Shown: positions 1-37,034, counted from the stretch's first letter. The stretch is 37,529 nt of DNA from a virus (IMGVR_UViG_2778261576_000005:1-37529), one strand, 5' to 3'. Translations and numbers: made by a program. Notes: generated by a model not told the origin, from the letters alone.

Positions 1-20
1 CACTGTTTATCCATACAGTT
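1..20 (+). promoter_or_regulatory. LexA (SOS) box 1, CTGT-N8-ACAG, upstream of dinI-like gene
   Basis: caCTGTttatccatACAGtt matches the LexA consensus spacing. Confidence 0.6.
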
Positions 21-28
21 AAAAATAA

Positions 29-48
29 TACTGTATACAAACACAGTA
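29..48 (+). promoter_or_regulatory. LexA (SOS) box 2, near-consensus
   Basis: taCTGTatacaaacACAGta; lies 14 nt upstream of the ATG at 62, SD agaggga at 51-57. Confidence 0.7.
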
Positions 49-61
49 TAGAGGGACTTTT

Positions 62-310
62 ATGCGTATTGAAATCTGCATAGCCAAAGAAAAAATGACT
101 AAAATGCCAACCGGTGCTGTGGATGCGTTAAAGGAAGAATTAACCCGACGCATCAGTAAACGTTATGACGATGTAGAGGTGATCGTAAAAGCCACCAGCA
201 ACGATGGCCTTTCTGTTACACGCACCGCAGATAAGGATTCTGCAAAAACTTTTGTTCAGGAGACTCTGAAAGATACCTGGGAATCTGCTGATGAGTGGTT
301 TGTTCACTAA
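62..310 (+). CDS. dinI: DinI-family SOS-response protein (prophage-encoded)
   Basis: 82 aa; MRIE...[10 protein letters not shown] resembles DinI; two LexA boxes directly upstream. Confidence 0.8.
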
Positions 311-413
311 TTAACACGTAAAATCGGTAACGGCTGGAAATCATTCAATACTCGCACTATCGAAAGTTAACCAGCCAGCCGTGGCACGTTCTTGCATACG
401 ACGTGCTACGGTT

Positions 414-611
414 TCATTTATCTCCGACCGGAAACTTCTTATACAAAGTCGATACGCCAACATCATAGATGATCGCTACCTTCTGGCGAGAAACTCCTGA
501 TGCAATTAGTCGTCCAGCCTGCGCCCATTGTTCTGGACAGCGACCTCCAGTTCGTCCCTGTGCGCGAGCAGTTGTAACTTTGCGTTTTTTTCTGGGCAAA
601 TTAACACGCAA
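414..611 (-). pseudogene. Serine DNA invertase (Hin/Gin/Pin family) C-terminal HTH fragment; catalytic domain absent
   Basis: GRTGGR...QWAQAGRLIASGVSRQKVAIIYDVGVSTLYKKFP matches the invertase C-terminal DNA-binding domain; track start is TTG; in-frame stop lies only 17 codons upstream. Confidence 0.55.
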
Positions 612-4236: not shown

Positions 4237-4651
4237 GCGTTATCGCACTCCACAGATCATCAAAAGAAATCATTACCGGTCCGTCACGACGCCAGAGAGT
4301 GATACTGTTACCCAGTTCATTAATCCCGGTGCGGCGGATATCCAGATCAATACGGGACACCACGCCGTCATCAATCATCCATTGCAGGCATTCGCGGATA
4401 TACCCCCTTACCGTCTGCACCAGCTGATTGGTCAGTTTGCTGCGCTGAAGCAGCCACAGTCGGGAGCCGTAACGGTCATTCTGTACCGCAGGCCAGGTAT
4501 CCCCCCACCATCCCATCGGGACGTCGGCGTTGTCATCAGGCTCCGCCCGCCGCCAGGTAAACAGGGAAATCACCACGGCGCGGGTCAGCGGATCCAGCGG
4601 TGCGCTGGCGCAGGTGCGTTTACCGTTCACCGTCAGCCACAGTTCCATCAT
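4223..4651 (-). CDS. Baseplate protein, Mu gp46-like
   Basis: 142 aa; overlapping coupling with neighbours in the conserved order V-W-J-I. Confidence 0.6.
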   Translation of the reverse strand: MMELWLTVNGKRTCASAPLDPLTRAVVISLFTWRRAEPDDNADVPMGWWGDTWPAVQNDRYGSRLWLLQRSKLTNQLVQTVRGYIRECLQWMIDDGVVSRIDLDIRRTGINELGNSITLWRRDGPVMISFDDLWSAITHGGQ

Positions 4652-5196
4652 GCCTCCATCGCTTTATCAGGTTTGTCGGTGTTACTGCCCTGACCGTTCT
4701 CTCTGTGACGATGCCCGTTATAGGCAAGCCGCATCGCTGACATGGTGGTGCCGCCGGAGTCGCACAGGTCTTTCACCTGTCCTGTCACTTCCAGGTCCAT
4801 TTCAAAACGTGCTTCAGGTGCATTGCGAAACGTGATCGTTTTACCTGCACCGTCCACCACGATCCCCTCCCGGGTCAGCGTCACGGACTGCCCCTGATCG
4901 TCATAGACAGCCACCTCACCCGTCTGCAGCCCTTTCAGGCGGTAGCGCCGGTCCGACACCGTAACAACCACCGCATGAGAACGGTCGCCATCCGGAAACA
5001 ACACCACCGCTTCCGCACCGCTGTTTGCCCTTGCGGTAAAACCGTAGGGTTCAAGATGTTCAACCCCGGCTTTGGGTTCACCGGCAATCAGGGACACATC
5101 CACGGTCTGACATTTCGTGGCGGCACTGATGCTTTTCACCACGGCCCGCCCAATCAGGCCGAGGAGTTGTCGCTGCATGGCTTCAATCGTCCTCAT
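4648..5196 (-). CDS. Baseplate assembly/spike protein V-like (Mu gp45-like)
   Basis: 182 aa; position after hub gene. Confidence 0.65.
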   Translation of the reverse strand: MRTIEAMQRQLLGLIGRAVVKSISAATKCQTVDVSLIAGEPKAGVEHLEPYGFTARANSGAEAVVLFPDGDRSHAVVVTVSDRRYRLKGLQTGEVAVYDDQGQSVTLTREGIVVDGAGKTITFRNAPEARFEMDLEVTGQVKDLCDSGGTTMSAMRLAYNGHRHRENGQGSNTDKPDKAMEA

Positions 5197-24120: not shown

Positions 24121-25116
24121 TTACGCCAGTACGCCTATTGCCAGCGCACAATCGATAAAACGAAATATCAGCTCCAGCTGGGAGCCATACTTCTCTTCAA
24201 ATGCCACGGTATCCGCATGCAGCTCGTCGTGATGCTTTCTGCACAAAGGCAACACAAAGAGGTCATGCGCTTTTGTACCCATTCCCCCCTGACCGTGGCC
24301 TATCAGGTGGTGGGGATCATCAGCAGGCTTTCCACAACATGCACACGGCTGTGTCTTAACCCAGCGTGTGTACTTTTCATTAACCCAGCGGCGACGTTTT
24401 GGGCGTAACATAAAAGACTCCGGCGACTCCGGATCCACTTTCAGCGCCAGCACCTTTTTCGCTTTATCCTGGATGATGCTGGTGGCAGGAACCGAAGGCA
24501 CAAGGTCACTTTCCCGGGTGACAGACGGCACAACAGGCTTCGGTAATCTCAGTGCCTTACGGGCTGCACTTTCCGGTAAGGCATCCGCCAGGTCATTACG
24601 AATCAGCCACCAGCACAGTTCCGGCATTGTCACAACGTGACTGTCATCAAAACCGAGATCCCGACGCACAACAGACAACACCCAGCGGGCACAGTTATCC
24701 GTTGCCATTGATTCCAGCCGTTCCGTGAACTGATCGCGCAGCTGGTTATCGCAGTGCCAGCACAGACGGATTGCGCCCGGAGCGTGTCGCATTGTTGTCA
24801 TGTTCTCGCTGTGCCAGTCGGAATGAGGCCACTGGCAGCCTTTTTCACGAAGTAACCAGCTTTCAAGACATTCCACGCCACCAGCACGACGGATCACTGC
24901 CTCATTGCGGAACACGGCCCGAACGGCAGGATCATCCGCCAGCGGTTGTGATGCCGCCGGAACGGCACCACTGGCGAAAGATGAATAACGCTCCGGCTCA
25001 GGCTCCAGCAGGACACGCCCCTGCATAAACAGGGGCATCAGCTCTGAACCTGGCCTGAACAATACGATCCCCATACGCGGGGCAATTTCAGGGGTCAGTA
25101 GTGCTCTCACGGTCAC
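24121..25116 (-). CDS. DUF968-like protein with C-terminal HNH-like Cys/His cluster
   Basis: 331 aa; CACCGKPADDPHHL...CRKHHDELH. Confidence 0.6.
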   Translation of the reverse strand: MTVRALLTPEIAPRMGIVLFRPGSELMPLFMQGRVLLEPEPERYSSFASGAVPAASQPLADDPAVRAVFRNEAVIRRAGGVECLESWLLREKGCQWPHSDWHSENMTTMRHAPGAIRLCWHCDNQLRDQFTERLESMATDNCARWVLSVVRRDLGFDDSHVVTMPELCWWLIRNDLADALPESAARKALRLPKPVVPSVTRESDLVPSVPATSIIQDKAKKVLALKVDPESPESFMLRPKRRRWVNEKYTRWVKTQPCACCGKPADDPHHLIGHGQGGMGTKAHDLFVLPLCRKHHDELHADTVAFEEKYGSQLELIFRFIDCALAIGVLA

Positions 25117-28618: not shown

Positions 28619-28839
28619 GCTGCACCTCCGAGATGCTTCATGTTTTTTCCGGAGCAAAAGGCTATAAGCGGCATACTGACGCGGTAATTACGGCCCAGCG
28701 GTTCACAAACCACCTTCTGACATTCACGGTCAACCAGGCTAACACGTAGAACATGCCCTGCAGGCGTGGTGTACCACTGACCGGGGCGAGGACAACGGAA
28801 AGTCTGATTGGTAAATCGTTTGAAAATATTCCGGATCAT
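28615..28839 (-). CDS. Small Cys-containing basic protein, translationally coupled between Rha and replication gene
   Basis: 74 aa; ATGA overlaps at both ends; four Cys residues. Confidence 0.45.
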   Translation of the reverse strand: MIRNIFKRFTNQTFRCPRPGQWYTTPAGHVLRVSLVDRECQKVVCEPLGRNYRVSMPLIAFCSGKNMKHLGGAA

Positions 28840-29987
28840 TTGCGCCCCCTTACCTCTGAAGAGTTCAGCGACGAATGAATAAGACGGGCAAGAAATGCCG
28901 CATCGTTAATTCGGTCATACAGACTTACAGCCAGCGGTGATTCAGCTTTTTCCAGCATGGGATAAAGCTGCTGCAACCAGACCTGATGAATTGATGAAAT
29001 GTAGGAACAGAGAACGCTGGCGTTATGTGCAACGTCGCTCGGTACAGCGGGCTTTGAAAGCTGTTTCTCCATCTGGTTAAAGGCATTGATATATGCCTCT
29101 TTGAACTGGGCAGCACGTTTACCCGTGAAACCCATAGCAAGAAACGCAAAACCGTCGCGTGTGATTTGGTAGCAAGGAAGTTTGCGACCTGTGCAATCAG
29201 TGTAATCACTCACCGAAAAATTGCGGGCAGTGAATGATGCTGAGCATTCAAGCGTGCGGATCTTTTTCAGTACATCGTCATGACGTTTGGAGAAGAAGTT
29301 GGCAACAGCCAGGGATGAAGTAACAGCCTGACCATCAACGATGGCAATTTCAGGTTGAGTGAGGGTTGGGATCGTAGCCATGATGGCAGCCTCTTTGGTG
29401 ATTTTTAATAACTCACCACCAAGGCTTTCCACGACCTTATTGGTGGTGAGACATACAGGGGTGGAAATACCGGTCACCAAAGAACCCGGCCCAACCGAAG
29501 TTGGCCCTGCACGCCCCACCATAATTTGGGCGTAATGCTGCTCATGACACAAAAAAACCGCAAGAGCGCGGTTGTGCGCTTTGGTGAATTCCGGGTTTCC
29601 ACGCCCGGCACCCGTTTTATAAGGTGCCTGAACAGTGTAACGTCCCGGAATGGCAGAATCAATGTGCTGGTGGTCCTTCACACTCAACAAAATCACGCCT
29701 GAATTTCCACAAAGGACTAAAGCACTCATGCGGGTAGTCTTTGCGAAGATAGATAACGCGCTGTGTTTCTGGCTCCCAACGAATAACATGAACATAAAGT
29801 CCTCTTCCGTCACGAAACCAGCGGTTAAGTTCCTGCACAACTCGCCCCCCACAGTCAGGTAAAGTTCTCTGTGGTTACTTACAGCCAGGTGATTTGGTAA
29901 TCTGCATTCATGCCGTAACAACAGGTGTGCAGCGACACTGACCACCAGCTGTTGCGACAAACGGTTATTTGCCGTTAAACTGTTCAT
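28836..29987 (-). CDS. Rha-family regulatory domain protein (Rha domain from internal ATG 29381; 202-codon open N-terminal extension)
   Basis: Rha motifs in the C-terminal half; ORF start at 29987 makes an ATGA overlap with the upstream gene stop. Confidence 0.55.
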   Translation of the reverse strand: MNSLTANNRLSQQLVVSVAAHLLLRHECRLPNHLAVSNHRELYLTVGGELCRNLTAGFVTEEDFMFMLFVGSQKHSALSIFAKTTRMSALVLCGNSGVILLSVKDHQHIDSAIPGRYTVQAPYKTGAGRGNPEFTKAHNRALAVFLCHEQHYAQIMVGRAGPTSVGPGSLVTGISTPVCLTTNKVVESLGGELLKITKEAAIMATIPTLTQPEIAIVDGQAVTSSLAVANFFSKRHDDVLKKIRTLECSASFTARNFSVSDYTDCTGRKLPCYQITRDGFAFLAMGFTGKRAAQFKEAYINAFNQMEKQLSKPAVPSDVAHNASVLCSYISSIHQVWLQQLYPMLEKAESPLAVSLYDRINDAAFLARLIHSSLNSSEVRGRK

Positions 29988-30568
29988 GCGTTAGTTTCTC
30001 CACAACCAGAAGCAATCGACGCCACGACGCCCGGAGCTGCACACTCGCGGGCGTTACTCTTTTCCGGCGCACAAAAAACACGAAATAACAGTGTTAAATG
30101 CTCCTGCCACTTCGCCATTACTTGGTAGCTGTTCTCTTCGATTTGCTCACGCTCAGCTTGGTCAATAACTCCATCAGCAGTTGCCTTGCGTAAGTACTGG
30201 GAATGCTTGCCAATCCATTCTATTGACTCCATCAGCCGCTGATTAATGTCACCATTGTCAATGTCATCAATGACCACCAGCGGCACAAACACCCCATTAC
30301 TACGACGGGCTATTGCATCTGTTACATGCCTGGTACCACTGGCATCCTGTAAAACCATGGCCCACTCAAGTGGAAAAATTTGATCCCCACCGCTACGCAG
30401 TCTGTTATGCAATTGATCTTTTGCTGGGGTGATATCATCAGATTTATACAAACCAAGAATTTCTGCTGCTTCCTCATAGCCATGAGGTAAATCAGCAATC
30501 GTTCTTCGTATTGCTGCCACCAGCCATGCTGGTTGTTTATCAACTTTCCATTCAGGTTCTTTACCCAC
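29984..30568 (-). CDS. YmfL-like early regulator (cII-position gene)
   Basis: 194 aa directly downstream of cro-like gene. Confidence 0.45.
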   Translation of the reverse strand: MGKEPEWKVDKQPAWLVAAIRRTIADLPHGYEEAAEILGLYKSDDITPAKDQLHNRLRSGGDQIFPLEWAMVLQDASGTRHVTDAIARRSNGVFVPLVVIDDIDNGDINQRLMESIEWIGKHSQYLRKATADGVIDQAEREQIEENSYQVMAKWQEHLTLLFRVFCAPEKSNARECAAPGVVASIASGCGETNA

Positions 30569-30825: not shown

Positions 30826-30890
30826 ATGTAGGATATCCAACATACCAATGTCAAGAATCCTACATGGGCATGTGGTAGGATTGCCTACAT
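30826..30890. promoter_or_regulatory. OR region: three operator repeats with divergent PR (minus) and PRM (plus)
   Basis: ATGTAGGATATCCAACAT at 30826-30843 plus two related sites at about 30848-30865 and 30870-30890; minus-strand TTGACA-17-CTACAT upstream of cro. Confidence 0.6.
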
Positions 30891-31542
30891 GATGAACATG
30901 AGTGATCGTATTCGCCAAAGGCGAAAAGAACTGAACCTGACACAACAAGCACTGGCTGATTTGACTGGTGTGAACCGTGTCACGGTTACTGGATGGGAAA
31001 AGGACGACTACCAACCAAATGGAGCCAACCTTCAAGCCCTAGCCAACGCACTTAAATGCGATCCTCTGTGGCTTGTTAGCGGAAAAGGCTCGCCTGAACC
31101 AAAGATAAATCTAAAACCTGAAATATTCGCAGTTAAAAAAGTCCCCCTCATCTCGTGGGTTCAGGCGGGTTCATGGACAATGACGGAGCCTGGTGTCAGG
31201 AAAGAAGATGCTGAAGAGTGGGTTTATACTACCGCCCTTGTATCAGAAATGGCATTTGCACTACGGGTCCGTGGTGATTCAATGACCAATCCCCTCGGCT
31301 CACCATCGATACCAGAAGGTTCTATCGTTATCGTAGAGCCAGATATTATTGATACAGAGTGTATTAACGGAAAAATCGTTGTTGCCCATATCAATGGTGG
31401 GCAAGAAGCGACACTCAAAAAATTTGTTGAGGACTGGCCGAACAGGTATCTCGTCCCACTAAATCCTAACTATAAAACTATTGAATGCGGTGAGAACTGC
31501 AGAATAGTTGGTCTTGTCAAACAAGTAATAATGGATTTTTGA
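30889..31542 (+). CDS. CI-type prophage repressor (HTH plus S24 LexA-like autopeptidase)
   Basis: N-terminal XRE-type HTH; C-terminal GDSM Ser nucleophile and conserved Lys. Confidence 0.85.
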   Translation: MMNMSDRIRQRRKELNLTQQALADLTGVNRVTVTGWEKDDYQPNGANLQALANALKCDPLWLVSGKGSPEPKINLKPEIFAVKKVPLISWVQAGSWTMTEPGVRKEDAEEWVYTTALVSEMAFALRVRGDSMTNPLGSPSIPEGSIVIVEPDIIDTECINGKIVVAHINGGQEATLKKFVEDWPNRYLVPLNPNYKTIECGENCRIVGLVKQVIMDF

Positions 31543-33055: not shown

Positions 33056-33880
33056 ATGTCTCAGAACTTAGACGCAACCGCAATTAATCAAATTCATGCC
33101 CTTATTTCTGCTCAGGGTGTTAATGAAATTATCAGTAAGATTGGTGCCGATGCTGTGGCATTGCCTGAGAATTTCCGCATTCATGATCTGGAAAAATTTA
33201 ATTTAAATCGCTTCCGTTTCCGTGGTGCACTTTCCACTGCCAGCATCGATGATTTTACCCGTTATTCTAAAGATCTTGCAGATGAAGGCACCCGCTGCTT
33301 TATCGACGCCGATAATATGCGTGCCGTCAGTGTACTTAACCTGGGTACTATCGATGAACCAGGTCACGCAGATAACACCGCCACTCTCAAACTGAAAAAG
33401 ACAGCACCGTTCTCTGCCCTGTTGTCTGTTAACGGCGAGCGTAACTCCCAGAAGTCACTGGCAGAATGGATTGAAGACTGGGCCGACTACCTTGTGGGCT
33501 TTGATGCTAATGGTGACGCCATTCAGGCAACCAAAGCGGCTGCGGCGATCCGTAAAATCACAATTGAAGCGAACCAGACAGCTGATTTTGAAGATAATGA
33601 CTTCAGCGGCAAACGCTCCCTGATGGAGTCAGTCGAAGCGAAGACCAAAGACATTATGCCAGTGGCATTTGAATTTAAATGCGTTCCGTTTGAAGGCCTG
33701 AAAGAACGTCCGTTTAAATTACGCCTCAGCATTATCACTGGCGATCGTCCTGTACTGGTTCTGCGCATTATTCAGCTGGAAGCGGTGCAGGAAGAAATGG
33801 CTAACGAATTTCGTGATCTGCTTGTTGAGAAATTCAAAGACAGCAAAGTCGAAACCTTTATTGGTACTTTCACCGCCTGA
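33056..33880 (+). CDS. YfdQ-like protein (DUF2303-type, 274 aa)
   Basis: Size and position; acidic protein. Confidence 0.55.
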
Positions 33881-34007
33881 TTTCATTACTGCAAATGCCC
33901 CTGCGGGGGCATTTATGGAAACGTAATTAACTCAATAATCACCGGATGGTGAGAGCTTCCTTTTACCAGAATTCAGCGCGGTGCAGCGCATATACGTGGA
34001 GAACAAA

Positions 34008-34544
34008 ATGTCATTTATTAAAACTTTTTCCGGGAAGCATTTTTATTATGACAAGATAAATAAAGACGACATCGTGATTAACGATATCGCAGTTTCCCTC
34101 TCAAATATCTGTCGCTTTGCAGGGCATCTTTCACACTTCTACAGCGTCGCCCAACATGCGGTGCTTTGCAGCCAGCTGGTACCGCAGGAGTTTGCTTTCG
34201 AAGCGTTAATGCATGATGCAACAGAAGCATATTGCCAGGACATCCCCGCGCCACTGAAACGACCTCTTCCTGACTATAAACGGATGGAAGAAAAAATAGA
34301 CGCCGTAATCCGTAAGAAATACGGGTTACCCCCGGTTATGAGTACGCCCGTGAAATATGCCGATCTAATCATGCTGGCAACCGAACGCCGTGATCTCGGG
34401 CTTGATGATGGCTCTTTCTGGCCTGTACTGGAAGGCATCCCGGCAACAGAGATGTTCAACGTGATTCCACTGGCACCGGGCCATGCCTACGGGATGTTTA
34501 TGGAACGCTTCAACGAGTTATCGGAATTACGCAAATGTGCATAA
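34008..34544 (+). CDS. HD-domain phosphohydrolase, YfdR-like 5'-deoxynucleotidase
   Basis: GGAG SD 6 nt before ATG 34008 (178 aa); H...HD...D metal-binding motif (LMHDATEAY). Confidence 0.7.
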   Translation: MSFIKTFSGKHFYYDKINKDDIVINDIAVSLSNICRFAGHLSHFYSVAQHAVLCSQLVPQEFAFEALMHDATEAYCQDIPAPLKRPLPDYKRMEEKIDAVIRKKYGLPPVMSTPVKYADLIMLATERRDLGLDDGSFWPVLEGIPATEMFNVIPLAPGHAYGMFMERFNELSELRKCA

Positions 34545-35413
34545 CTCATGTAGTTAGTTTTTCTGGCGGGAGAACATCTGCATATCTTGTTCACCTGATG
34601 GAAGAACAAAGAAAGGCTGGCAATAACGTCTGCTACATCTTTATGGATACCGGTTGCGAACATCCGCTGACATACCGCTTTATTCGGGAGGTTGTGAAGT
34701 TCTGGGGCATACCGCTAACTGTGTTGCAGGTCGATATAAATCCAGAGCTTGGGCAGCCAAATGGTTATACGGAATGGGAACCAAAGGATATTCAGACACG
34801 AATGCCGGTGCTTAAACCGTTTATGGACATGGTAAAAAAATATGGCACGCCATACATCGGCGGCGAGTTCTGCACTGACAGATTAAAACTCACCCCCTTC
34901 ACAAAATACTGCGATGACCATTTCGGACGAGGGAATTACATCACATGGCTGGGTATTCGTGCAGACGAACCTCGTAGGCTGAAACCGAAATCAGGCGTCC
35001 GGTATCTTGCCGAGCTATCTGATTTTGATAAGTCGGATGTTATCCGGTGGTGGCATAAACAACCTTTTGATTTGCAAATCCCGGAGCACCTCGGGAACTG
35101 TGTTTTCTGCATCAAAAAGTCCACGCAAAAGCTGGGGCTTGCATGTAAAGACGAACCTGGTCTGATGCGAGTTTTTAATGAGCTGGTTACAGGTAAACAC
35201 GTCCGGGATGGTCACCGAAAGACAAATAAAGACGTTATGTACCGTGGTCATCTGAGCCTTGACGGGATTGCCAGAATGTATGCCGACAGCGACTACAGAA
35301 ATTTGTATCAGGCGATGGTGCAAGCCAGGCGATTCGATACCGGCTCGTGTTCAGAGTCATGTGAAATCTGGGGTGATCAATTGGAATTGAAATTCGAAGA
35401 GGTGGTGGCATGA
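34535..35413 (+). CDS. PAPS reductase-like PP-loop ATP pyrophosphatase family protein
   Basis: SFSGGRTSA PP-loop motif near the N-terminus; 292 aa. Confidence 0.75.
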   Translation: MCITHVVSFSGGRTSAYLVHLMEEQRKAGNNVCYIFMDTGCEHPLTYRFIREVVKFWGIPLTVLQVDINPELGQPNGYTEWEPKDIQTRMPVLKPFMDMVKKYGTPYIGGEFCTDRLKLTPFTKYCDDHFGRGNYITWLGIRADEPRRLKPKSGVRYLAELSDFDKSDVIRWWHKQPFDLQIPEHLGNCVFCIKKSTQKLGLACKDEPGLMRVFNELVTGKHVRDGHRKTNKDVMYRGHLSLDGIARMYADSDYRNLYQAMVQARRFDTGSCSESCEIWGDQLELKFEEVVA

Positions 35414-35613
35414 CAATCGTAAAAACCCATACCGGCATTGTGATCACCAAAGACGGCCCGCAGGTAAAAAAACTTCACCAGACAGAGCGGATGTGGGTCG
35501 TCGGCAAAAACGAGTTTTACCACAAAGAAACCGGACGCCGCCACTTTGCAGAAAATACGCGCCGCCGACTACTGATCGACACCATCAAGCCTATCGAGGT
35601 GAAGCATGTTTAA
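35410..35613 (+). CDS. Small hypothetical protein (67 aa)
   Basis: ATGA overlap with upstream stop; GAGGTGG SD. Confidence 0.45.
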   Translation: MTIVKTHTGIVITKDGPQVKKLHQTERMWVVGKNEFYHKETGRRHFAENTRRRLLIDTIKPIEVKHV

Positions 35614-35845
35614 ACAGAACGAAAAATCTATCGCTCAAATTGCTGAGTATATCCCGCGTGCGTGCCGGGGTATGCAGTTGCAGGAAGCCAAAGCGCGCCT
35701 GGAGAAAAAAATTGCGCTCTATATCGATGACGGCTGTGATGCTGCCGTTCTTAACGCGGCGTTCGCGCCAGCTCTTAACAGTCATACGCGGGAGTCTTTT
35801 TTTTCGCGCATCGCAGCGCAGATCCGTAAAGGAGGCAACCAGTGA
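35606..35845 (+). CDS. Small hypothetical protein (79 aa)
   Basis: Coupled to neighbours by overlapping stop/start. Confidence 0.45.
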   Translation: MFKQNEKSIAQIAEYIPRACRGMQLQEAKARLEKKIALYIDDGCDAAVLNAAFAPALNSHTRESFFSRIAAQIRKGGNQ

Positions 35846-36153
35846 GCAATTATCTGTACTGGTCTGGCTTAGTGGCTAACATTGCGCTCATGTTGTTCGT
35901 GGCTCTTTGCATCTGGGTTTGGTTTATCTGGCCTTTTGTAGAGGCTATGAGCATAACTCGGTGCTTTATTTGCGCATCAAAGACTTCTGGATGCAAACCA
36001 ACTGTAAGAGCAATTATCAGAACTTTAAAATACTGGTATCTGGATTTGCTTTTCGGCAGGGGCTGGACGCGAATTAGTAACCGCCAGTTTGAATGGGAAG
36101 GCGTCGGTAACTGGCGAATTCACAGCAGCAAAGAAACGCAGGAGGTGAAGTAA
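35842..36153 (+). CDS. Small membrane protein (103 aa, one N-terminal TM)
   Basis: GTG start with AAGGAGG SD; hydrophobic segment LVANIALMLFVALCIWVWFIW. Confidence 0.5.
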   Translation: MSNYLYWSGLVANIALMLFVALCIWVWFIWPFVEAMSITRCFICASKTSGCKPTVRAIIRTLKYWYLDLLFGRGWTRISNRQFEWEGVGNWRIHSSKETQEVK

Positions 36154-36725
36154 TGAACAACTTAATGATCGACCTTGAGACGATGGGGAAAAATAAGGAT
36201 GCACCAATCGTTTCCATTGGCGCGGTGTTCTTCACCCCAGAAACCGGAGACATCGGACAAGAATTCTATACGGTTGTCAGCCTGGAAAGTGCTATGGAGC
36301 AAGGGGCCACACCTGACGGCGATACCATCCTGTGGTGGTTGAAACAGAGCCCTGAAGCACGAGCTGCAATCTGTATTGATGATACTTTGTCGATCAGCGA
36401 TGCACTCTCTGAACTGAGCCATTTCATTAATCAGCATGCAGACAATACAAAATATTTAAAAGTCTGGGGTAACGGGGCCACCTTCGACAACGTAATTTTA
36501 CATGGAGCTTATGAGCGAGCAGGACAAATCTGCCCGTGGGCATACTGGAATGACCACGATGTACGCACGATCGTTACGCTTGGGCGTTCCATCGGATTCG
36601 ACCCCAAAATGGACATGCCCTTCGATGGCGAACGGCACAACGCCCTGGCCGATGCCCGTCATCAGGCAAAATATGTTTCCGCTATCTGGCAGAAATTAAT
36701 TCCTGCCACCAGCACAGAATTATGA
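36153..36725 (+). CDS. 3'-5' exonuclease, DEDD family
   Basis: MIDLETMG acidic motif I, later conserved His/Asp (ERHNALADARHQ); 190 aa. Confidence 0.7.
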   Translation: MNNLMIDLETMGKNKDAPIVSIGAVFFTPETGDIGQEFYTVVSLESAMEQGATPDGDTILWWLKQSPEARAAICIDDTLSISDALSELSHFINQHADNTKYLKVWGNGATFDNVILHGAYERAGQICPWAYWNDHDVRTIVTLGRSIGFDPKMDMPFDGERHNALADARHQAKYVSAIWQKLIPATSTEL

Positions 36726-36761
36726 TTTTCCCGGGTGCAGCCGGTTTTGATGGAGAAAATT

Positions 36762-37034
36762 ATGAACACCTTGTTTTTACTGATGGCTGAATTCAATACC
36801 CCTAACATTGAACTCTCAGCAGTTAGCCAAAAGTACTTTGGCATGAGTCCAGCCACGGCAGAAGCAAAAGCAAACGCTTGTAAGTTGCCCGTTCCAACAT
36901 ATCGCATCGGCACATCACAAAAAGCAAAACGTTGCATCAATATTCAGGATCTTGCGGAATACATAGACAAAAGGCGAGAAGAAGGGCGTGCTGAGTGGGA
37001 AAGGGTCAGAACCCATAAACAAAGGCTCATTTAA
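36762..37034 (+). CDS. Excisionase-like DNA-binding protein (PrtN family)
   Basis: GGAG SD 6 nt before ATG 36762; about 90 aa; last gene of early-left operon before the expected int. Confidence 0.5.
   Translation: MNTLFLLMAEFNTPNIELSAVSQKYFGMSPATAEAKANACKLPVPTYRIGTSQKAKRCINIQDLAEYIDKRREEGRAEWERVRTHKQRLI

Follow-up and report, generated by a model that had tools for sequence, protein, structure and literature searches.

A prophage dinI gene behind two LexA boxes and ahead of a conserved two-hairpin RNA element: a candidate SOS-controlled accessory cassette

Prophage dinI homologues under LexA control

LexA-repressed dinI homologues of prophages are already established, with Gifsy-1, Gifsy-2, Gifsy-3, PhiKO2 and 186 (tum) as documented cases. 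In the three Gifsy prophages, which are of Salmonella, the dinI homologue has a LexA box in front of it, its tagged product builds up upon mitomycin C treatment, and replacement of the LexA-box region abolishes damage-dependent activation; deletion of the dinI homologue itself has no measurable effect on induction (PMC3121763). Nalidixic acid induces the Gifsy homologues 4.6- to 23-fold, and a single box lies some 19 bp away from the ATG of each (PMC8072944, Table 1). The dinI-like gene of PhiKO2 is under LexA control (cited in PMC7556043), dinI-like genes are generally present in temperate phages (PMC7556043), and the dinI-like gene c0943 of strain CFT073 co-varied with sulA, umuD, recN and dinI on microarrays (PMC2817434).

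The locus described here lies at the start of a 37,529-nt stretch of prophage DNA that was analysed as a whole (hereafter the window) and that is 100% identical to DNA of Escherichia coli KE51. A dinI-like gene (62-310, + strand; 82 aa, ATG start, WP_001217553.1) stands behind two LexA boxes and is followed by a structured 3' region. Given that LexA control of prophage dinI genes has been established before, the arrangement is in this respect an ordinary one. As in the Gifsy loci, a DinI-family gene of a prophage has a LexA box shortly before its ATG and a -35/-10 promoter ahead of that; the Gifsy genes are damage-inducible and are expressed from an otherwise repressed prophage. The differences concern the number of boxes, two here against one in Gifsy, and the company the gene keeps. 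The Gifsy homologue heads an operon that includes an antirepressor gene (gfoA or gftA) and irsA, in prophages whose repressors are not cleaved. The window gene is monocistronic, followed by a structured RNA and a probable terminator, and the prophage repressor is, unlike those of Gifsy, of the S24 type.

These differences bear directly on one way of reading the locus, namely as an antirepressor operon of the Gifsy/186 type, in which the dinI homologue would share a transcript, or be fused, with a small antirepressor able to inactivate a repressor that is not cleavable. The resemblances just listed notwithstanding, we consider this extremely improbable, and reject it on anatomy. Neither of the defining features of such a module, an antirepressor reading frame downstream of or fused to dinI and a repressor devoid of a self-cleavage domain, was found. 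No + strand ORF of at least 30 aa lies between the dinI stop codon (310) and hairpin 2 of the 3' region (positions 311-421 scanned), and the 82-aa protein aligns end to end with the 81-aa DinI of K-12, which leaves no extra domain. The CI-type prophage repressor (30889-31542, + strand) combines an HTH_3 domain with a Peptidase_S24 domain (E = 3.7e-25) and carries both a cleavage-site motif (VQAGSW, with the AG pair) and a catalytic motif (GDSM). On account of these domains and motifs, the repressor is likely to be cleaved directly with the help of RecA*, and the prophage is presumably induced in this way.

Two LexA boxes over a predicted promoter

The window starts with the sequence cactgtttatccatacagttaaaaataatactgtatacaaacacagtatagagggacttttATG. 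The pattern CTGT-N8-ACAG occurs three times in the 37,529 nt (3-18, 31-46 and 29869-29884), against 0.44 occurrences expected from shuffled sequences. The first two are the cores of box 1 (1-20, + strand; CACTGTTTATCCATACAGTT) and box 2 (29-48, + strand; TACTGTATACAAACACAGTA), both within 61 bp of the ATG, and thus where the earlier note had placed a pair of such boxes. Sites were scored by heterology index (HI) with a Berg-von Hippel matrix built from 16 experimentally known E. coli LexA boxes (PMC3009722, Table 4). Box 1 has an HI of 6.8 and box 2, the best site in the window, one of 3.6; both fall inside the range covered by the 16 known sites when each is left out in turn (0.5-12.9). Both are 20-bp sites of the TACTG(TA)5CAGTA type that defines operators of the E. 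coli LexA regulon, and the central part of box 1 is similar to the sulA box, TACTGTACATCCATACAGTA.

Boxes 1 and 2 are the two best-scoring sites on either strand of the window, the next best (30527-30546) having an HI of 11.65, and no site with an HI of 7 or less turned up in 300 dinucleotide-preserving shuffles of the window. The third CTGT-N8-ACAG has an HI of 17.7 and lies inside a gene for a Rha/Ash-domain protein (28836-29987, - strand); we discarded it as a chance match. The site at 30527-30546 is the best one in the immunity region, in which the matrix scan recognized no LexA-like site. Because that scan, over both strands of the 37.5 kb, yielded no further LexA-like sites besides boxes 1 and 2, the dinI promoter (PdinI) is predicted to be the sole direct LexA target of the prophage.

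The two boxes sit squarely on the predicted promoter. Its -35 hexamer, a perfect TTGACA, straddles the left end of the window: the first 4 bases are upstream (contig L001, 3997-4002 for the whole hexamer) and the final CA makes up window positions 1-2 (+ strand). A consensus scan places the -10 hexamer at 21-26 (AAAAAT, + strand), with a spacer of 18 and 10 of 12 consensus matches over the two hexamers; an alternative, TAAAAA at 20-25 (+ strand), would give a spacer of 17. A diverged relative (L183) reads AATAAT at the position homologous to the -10. Transcription is predicted to start at about 32-35 (+ strand), and a Shine-Dalgarno sequence, GAGGG, can be read at 51-55 (+ strand), 6 nt upstream of the ATG. 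A promoter is annotated at the same place in the record of phage mEp460. Box 1 therefore fills the -35/-10 spacer of the predicted promoter and box 2 covers its +1, which puts the operators over the predicted promoter of the regulated gene, as expected of a member of the SOS regulon. Such positions, in the spacer and over the start site, would be classic for repression.

Two operators at one promoter are familiar from the SOS regulon. The lexA and recN promoters of E. coli are multi-operator SOS promoters. In Salmonella, recN, dinI and lexA belong to this class (PMC8072944, Table 1). The window promoter resembles them in having two LexA boxes over core promoter elements, an arrangement associated with tight repression; it differs in its spacing, 28 bp from centre to centre here and 22-28 bp among relatives, with no obvious conservation of helical phasing or cooperativity. 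The chromosomal dinI of K-12, a LexA-regulon member by sequence as is the window gene, has a single box, ACCTGTATAAATAACCAGTA, 39 bp before its ATG.

It could be argued that the palindromes are chance matches, or that they are operators not for LexA but for a phage protein such as the integrase, an excisionase or the phage repressor. They do come directly after the int gene, and the two boxes are alike, forming an 18-nt inverted repeat pair. Against this, no shuffled sequence contained such sites, both boxes fit the matrix of the host LexA as well as proven sites do, and the same arrangement is found before dinI-like genes that lie behind unrelated upstream DNA, with homology beginning at the -35. 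Box sequences specific to one clade or another, moreover, always retain CTG-N10-CAG. We thus give hardly any credence to a non-LexA origin of the sites. The LexA control implied in the earlier note holds at the level of sequence, where it is strongly supported: the boxes score like proven sites, overlap the core promoter, have invariant cores and recur as a pair.

The recurrence of the pair emerges from a survey of related loci. A protein search of genome contigs recovered only 4 loci, while an alignment-based scan of viral sequences recovered 80 near-identical ones; diverged loci came from queries with diverged paralogues and with a loop motif of the 3' region. Among 21 distinct close variants of the promoter, all four CTGT/ACAG half-site cores are unchanged, and substitutions are confined to the -35, the internal spacer of box 1, the stretch between the boxes and the outer flanks. 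Three more diverged relatives, whose proteins are 62-72% identical to the window protein, keep the two-box layout with different box sequences: L183 (71%) has CACTGTATAAATAACCAGCC and AACTGTACATCTAAACAGTT, with HI values of 5.2 and 5.5, and L218 (72%) and L177 (62%) have two boxes each. The layout extends to a second DinI clade, which is MsgA-like (MFVELVYDK...MWLVSD; L253, L239, L270, L286 and others) and only 29-30% identical to the window protein. There a -35, TTGAAT, abuts TACCGGATAAAAACACAGTA, which is followed by TACTGTATATCCATCCAGTA and then by the Shine-Dalgarno sequence; in one subgroup the first box is a perfect consensus (score 0.0) and a second CTG-N10-CAG comes directly after it. 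In this clade, too, the order is -35, two LexA boxes, gene and two-hairpin element. CTG-N10-CAG is thus kept throughout while box sequences differ between clades and box offsets range over 22-28 bp. The conserved trait is the coverage of promoter elements, not helical phasing, and the double-operator promoter is the conserved design of prophage DinI paralogues. Set against the single box of chromosomal dinI, this design is useful for annotation.

Upstream of the window lies a dusA-type tyrosine integrase gene of 1098 bp (L001, 2903-4000), whose TGA stop codon overlaps the first four bases of the -35; window position 1 is, in KE51, the first base past that stop codon. The integrase gene adjoins dusA in KE51, from which it follows that the prophage is integrated at dusA and that dinI is the second gene from attL. 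The description of dinI as lying at the prophage edge was accordingly correct only in rough terms, in that the 1.1-kb integrase gene, outside the window, comes between the two. Read-through from that gene, with its stop codon inside the -35, could add some LexA-independent transcription. Many other provirus contigs in IMG/VR likewise have their first base at the ATG of dinI or 61 nt upstream of it. Boundary calls of this kind remove the promoter on which LexA is predicted to act.

A DinI paralogue and the proposed SOS cassette

The product of 62-310 had been taken for a DinI-like protein, and this identification is confirmed. It matches Pfam DinI (PF06183) with E = 1.1e-19 and a score of 70.9 bits (cutoff 24.2), its residues 16-80 covering profile positions 1-63 of 63 and hence the whole domain. 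It is 46% identical to K-12 DinI from end to end (the K-12 sequence was checked against the genome record), matches the solved DinI structures (PDB 1GHH and 7YWA) over its full length with E = 3.7e-13, and is named 'DinI-like family protein' in RefSeq. With the NCBIfam equivalog for chromosomal DinI (NF007893/PRK10597) it scores 73 bits, short of the cutoff of 111. This shortfall, the location in a prophage and the 46% identity make it a DinI-family paralogue by sequence rather than the chromosomal orthologue, and its activity on RecA may, in view of the same shortfall, differ from that of true DinI.

The features shared with K-12 DinI (PDB 1GHH) go beyond membership of one fold family and include the N-terminal MRIE and the acidic C-terminal helix with the pattern TWESAD-WF. 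Both are conserved among the paralogues, in which the latter reads TWESADEWF; residues W73, E74, A76, D77, W79 and F80 are invariant in 12 paralogues. The last 16 residues align with ILQETWESADDWFVSE of DinI and would form the negatively charged C-terminal helix through which members of the family contact RecA (Voloshin 2001, cited in PMC3121763). Modulation of RecA by the 82-aa protein is what the 46% identity to DinI would lead one to expect.

Across unrelated upstream DNA, homology between copies of the locus begins at the -35 and ends past the second 3' hairpin. These limits define a compact promoter-gene-terminator unit of about 425 bp. Independent units of this kind are known from lambdoid phages as morons, a concept reportedly put forward by Juhala, Hendrix and others in 2000. 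The dinI unit is like a moron in being compact, in having its own promoter and terminator, in lying between integrase and tail-fibre genes, and in occurring in unrelated backbones: siphoviruses (mEp460, cdtI and many Stx phages) and, here, a prophage with Mu-like baseplate and tail genes. It departs from the type in showing no marked GC contrast with neighbouring DNA and in that its 3' element is found alone in phages devoid of dinI. Window positions 1-310 are present in 1802 of 5426 complete E. coli genomes, a third of them, in up to 7 copies. A separate set of DinI paralogues (L166-L174; P0108 type, at least 1000 contigs), 67-82% identical, lacks the two-hairpin element and carries another conserved downstream sequence, CTAAAAAACGTCAACATGCAGAAAACTCGC...

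The account that we favor, and in which we place considerable confidence, is that window positions 1-421, together with the 4 bases upstream, constitute a self-contained dinI accessory cassette held by LexA, with a product that tunes RecA. The cassette would be an accessory unit, or moron, of the dusA-integrated prophage, and its strong sigma-70 promoter, with a consensus -35, would be kept shut by the host LexA at two operators. In undamaged cells both operators would be occupied and basal expression would be very low. Upon DNA damage, RecA* would trigger self-cleavage of LexA, LexA levels would drop and the promoter would fire. The 82-aa DinI-like protein would then be made and, by homology, bind RecA filaments via its acidic C-terminal helix, tuning filament stability and co-protease activity as DinI does. 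The transcript would run on through the two-hairpin element and most likely end at hairpin 2. The prophage repressor, with its S24 self-cleavage domain, would answer the same RecA* signal, and the DinI-like protein might have an effect on prophage induction. The link to host SOS dynamics drawn in the earlier note is conjectural, given that the Gifsy deletions left induction without measurable change. Against this scheme count the weakness of the -10 (AAAAAT), the fact that the start site is a prediction, the possible read-through from the integrase gene and the shortfall of the protein against the equivalog cutoff. If correct, the LexA-held cassette would be a further case, and a very common one, of an accessory gene of a prophage tied into the SOS regulon of its host, and could help in models of which genes of a prophage are turned on in antibiotic-induced SOS, and at what time.

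The two-hairpin element and its surroundings

Downstream of dinI, the 68 nt past the stop codon are retained even in paralogues of 71-74% protein identity. An unannotated element in the 3' UTR of dinI, at about 317-421 (+ strand), folds into two adjacent hairpins. Hairpin 1 (332-376, + strand) has a GGCTGG/CCAGCC stem and a nearly invariant 33-nt loop (338-370). Hairpin 2 (377-413, + strand) has a 14-bp stem and a conserved loop, CUUGCAUAC, and is followed by a U-rich tail, UUUCAUUUA, up to position 421 (+ strand). K-12 dinI, by comparison, has a short 3' UTR that lacks the two-hairpin element and carries an ordinary terminator made up of a GC hairpin and a T-run.

Covariation in an alignment of 52 distinct copies demonstrates that the structure is real. 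Stem cells pair in 88.7% of cases, compensatory double changes are seen in 15 of 19 stem pairs (5 of 7 in hairpin 1 and 10 of 12 in hairpin 2), and none of 500 shuffles reached the observed score; structures with the partners slid by 1-3 columns pair in only 26-57% of cases. Mean column identity is 0.94 in the loop of hairpin 1 and 0.90 in that of hairpin 2, 0.79-0.87 in the stems and 0.46-0.62 in the flanks. In hairpin 2, G-U cells outnumber A-C cells by 56 to 18, which favors an RNA read from the + strand, that of dinI.

Hairpin 2 and its tail are the probable terminator of the dinI transcript. A simple terminator scan did not call the hairpin, as its loop exceeds the limit of the scan, while folding reveals it clearly. 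Five or more U within 8 nt after the hairpin are present in only 15 of the 52 copies, so that hairpin 2 is not always a canonical terminator. A further indication comes from Rfam, whose sole match here is a partial one, on the opposite strand, to CssrB, a chromosomal sRNA of Shigella (window 380-436, - strand; also in the K-12 Qin locus L349 at 4534-4671, - strand), with 31.7 bits against a gathering score of 76. The 3' terminator of CssrB is the reverse complement of hairpin 2, for which reason hairpin 2 probably terminates transcripts arriving from both directions. On the strand of the element itself, Rfam 15 gave no match at E ≤ 1, and for the K-12 copy none at E ≤ 10.

The element might also have a promoter of its own. 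A TAAAAT hexamer (319-324, + strand) lies 7 nt before hairpin 1, and TAnAAT or TAnACT occupies this position in 45 of the 52 copies; it may be the -10-like part of an internal promoter or, alternatively, an AU-rich processing site. In the MsgA-like clade the hexamer is preceded by a -35-like sequence (TTGAAC-N16-TACAAT), which suggests a promoter proper to the element. The corresponding -35 in the window is weak, making read-through from PdinI the likelier source of the RNA there.

The distribution of the element is much wider than that of the cassette. A scan of viral contigs with the loop-1 motif gave at least 119 matches; those listed include places behind the DinI clade of the window, behind the MsgA-like clade and at sites without dinI. 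The element is found in 196 phage records, that of phi80 included, and in 5386 of 5426 complete E. coli genomes (99%), where the median copy number is 2 and the places add up to 15558, almost none of them annotated. The HK97 copy follows directly on sib, an annotated site, and is downstream of int and attP. That of lambda, in which stem 1 is weakened, occupies 24169-24256 on the leftward (minus) strand and falls between ea31 and ea47. The K-12 copy is in the Qin prophage at about 1632470-1632570, next to what looks like the decayed 3' end of a dinI gene. Supplements and the old literature on the lambda b region aside, we found no published description of the element or of an sRNA beside a prophage dinI. 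The PasB sRNA (Pas preprint) is probably distinct, to judge by its description as embedded among structural genes and having 1158 matches, compared with 15558 places for the element.

[quoted passage not shown] The element is like DinR in lying at the 3' end of a dinI transcript under presumptive LexA control, just upstream of the terminator or including it. The two differ in that DinR derives from the chromosomal dinI, makes use of a stretch specific to Klebsiella and base-pairs with the ribosome-binding site of ftsZ, whereas the element lacks ftsZ complementarity, occurs without dinI in lambda and HK97, and consists of two hairpins with conserved loops. For loop 1, no significant complementarity to the translation initiation region of K-12 ftsZ (-60 to +30) was detected, since the best duplex, at -8.4 kcal/mol, is equalled or bettered by 77 of 84 background start regions; this pairing was rejected. 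So was a pairing of loop 1 with the start of dinI, which includes an 8-nt exact complement (UUCAAUAC/GUAUUGAA) and reaches -13.3 kcal/mol: among the 84 other start regions of the window, 17 pair at least as well, as do 11% of shuffled loops.

One could envision that what has been selected in the cassette is not, or not only, DinI, but the structured RNA at its 3' end. On this view the purpose of LexA control would be the synthesis, upon DNA damage, of a regulatory RNA that, by analogy with DinR, either arises from the dinI mRNA by processing or has a promoter of its own. Several observations speak for such a role. No other part of the cassette is as conserved as the element, which two DinI clades of 29% protein identity have in common; it persists in Qin beside the dinI remnant; it is present in 5386 E. 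coli genomes, as opposed to 1802 for the dinI cassette; and its stems covary strongly while its loops hardly change. However, no target was found for it, the pairing of loop 1 with dinI being at background and that with ftsZ below, a good U tract follows hairpin 2 in only a minority of copies, the lambda and HK97 copies have no linked LexA boxes, and the element could be mainly a terminator or a stabilizer of mRNA 3' ends. On balance it seems unlikely that the RNA is the payload of the cassette, and we retain the account in which LexA-held expression serves the DinI-like protein.

[quoted passage not shown] If so, Rfam and genome annotation would lack an RNA that about 99% of E. coli genomes, and lambda too, contain. 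Should it prove to be a regulatory RNA, phage-host RNA biology would gain a widespread component that is easy to test.

Beyond the element, the stop codon of a Pin/Hin-type DNA invertase remnant (414-611, - strand), convergent with dinI, abuts hairpin 2. The remnant is a 65-aa ORF with the C-terminal HTH_7 domain only, a pseudogene in RefSeq; in related prophages the equivalent position is taken by an intact pinE, also convergent with dinI. A 23-nt inverted repeat (597-619 and 640-662; 91% complementary, 20 nt between the arms) lies between the remnant and the stop codon of the tailspike gene, and could be a terminator or a leftover from the boundary of an invertible segment. The adjoining 642-aa ORF (671-2599, - strand) has a pectate-lyase/GH55-like domain (Pfam PF12708) and has the look of a mosaic tailspike, with a depolymerase domain substituted for the invertible tail-fibre tip; RefSeq splits the same DNA in KE51 into a 510-aa GH55 protein and an stfP pseudogene fragment. 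Toward the other end of the window, a block of accessory early genes (33056-37034, + strand) encodes DUF2303, YfbR-like (below the Pfam cutoff), PAPS-reductase-like and Rv2179c-like 3'-5' exoribonuclease proteins.
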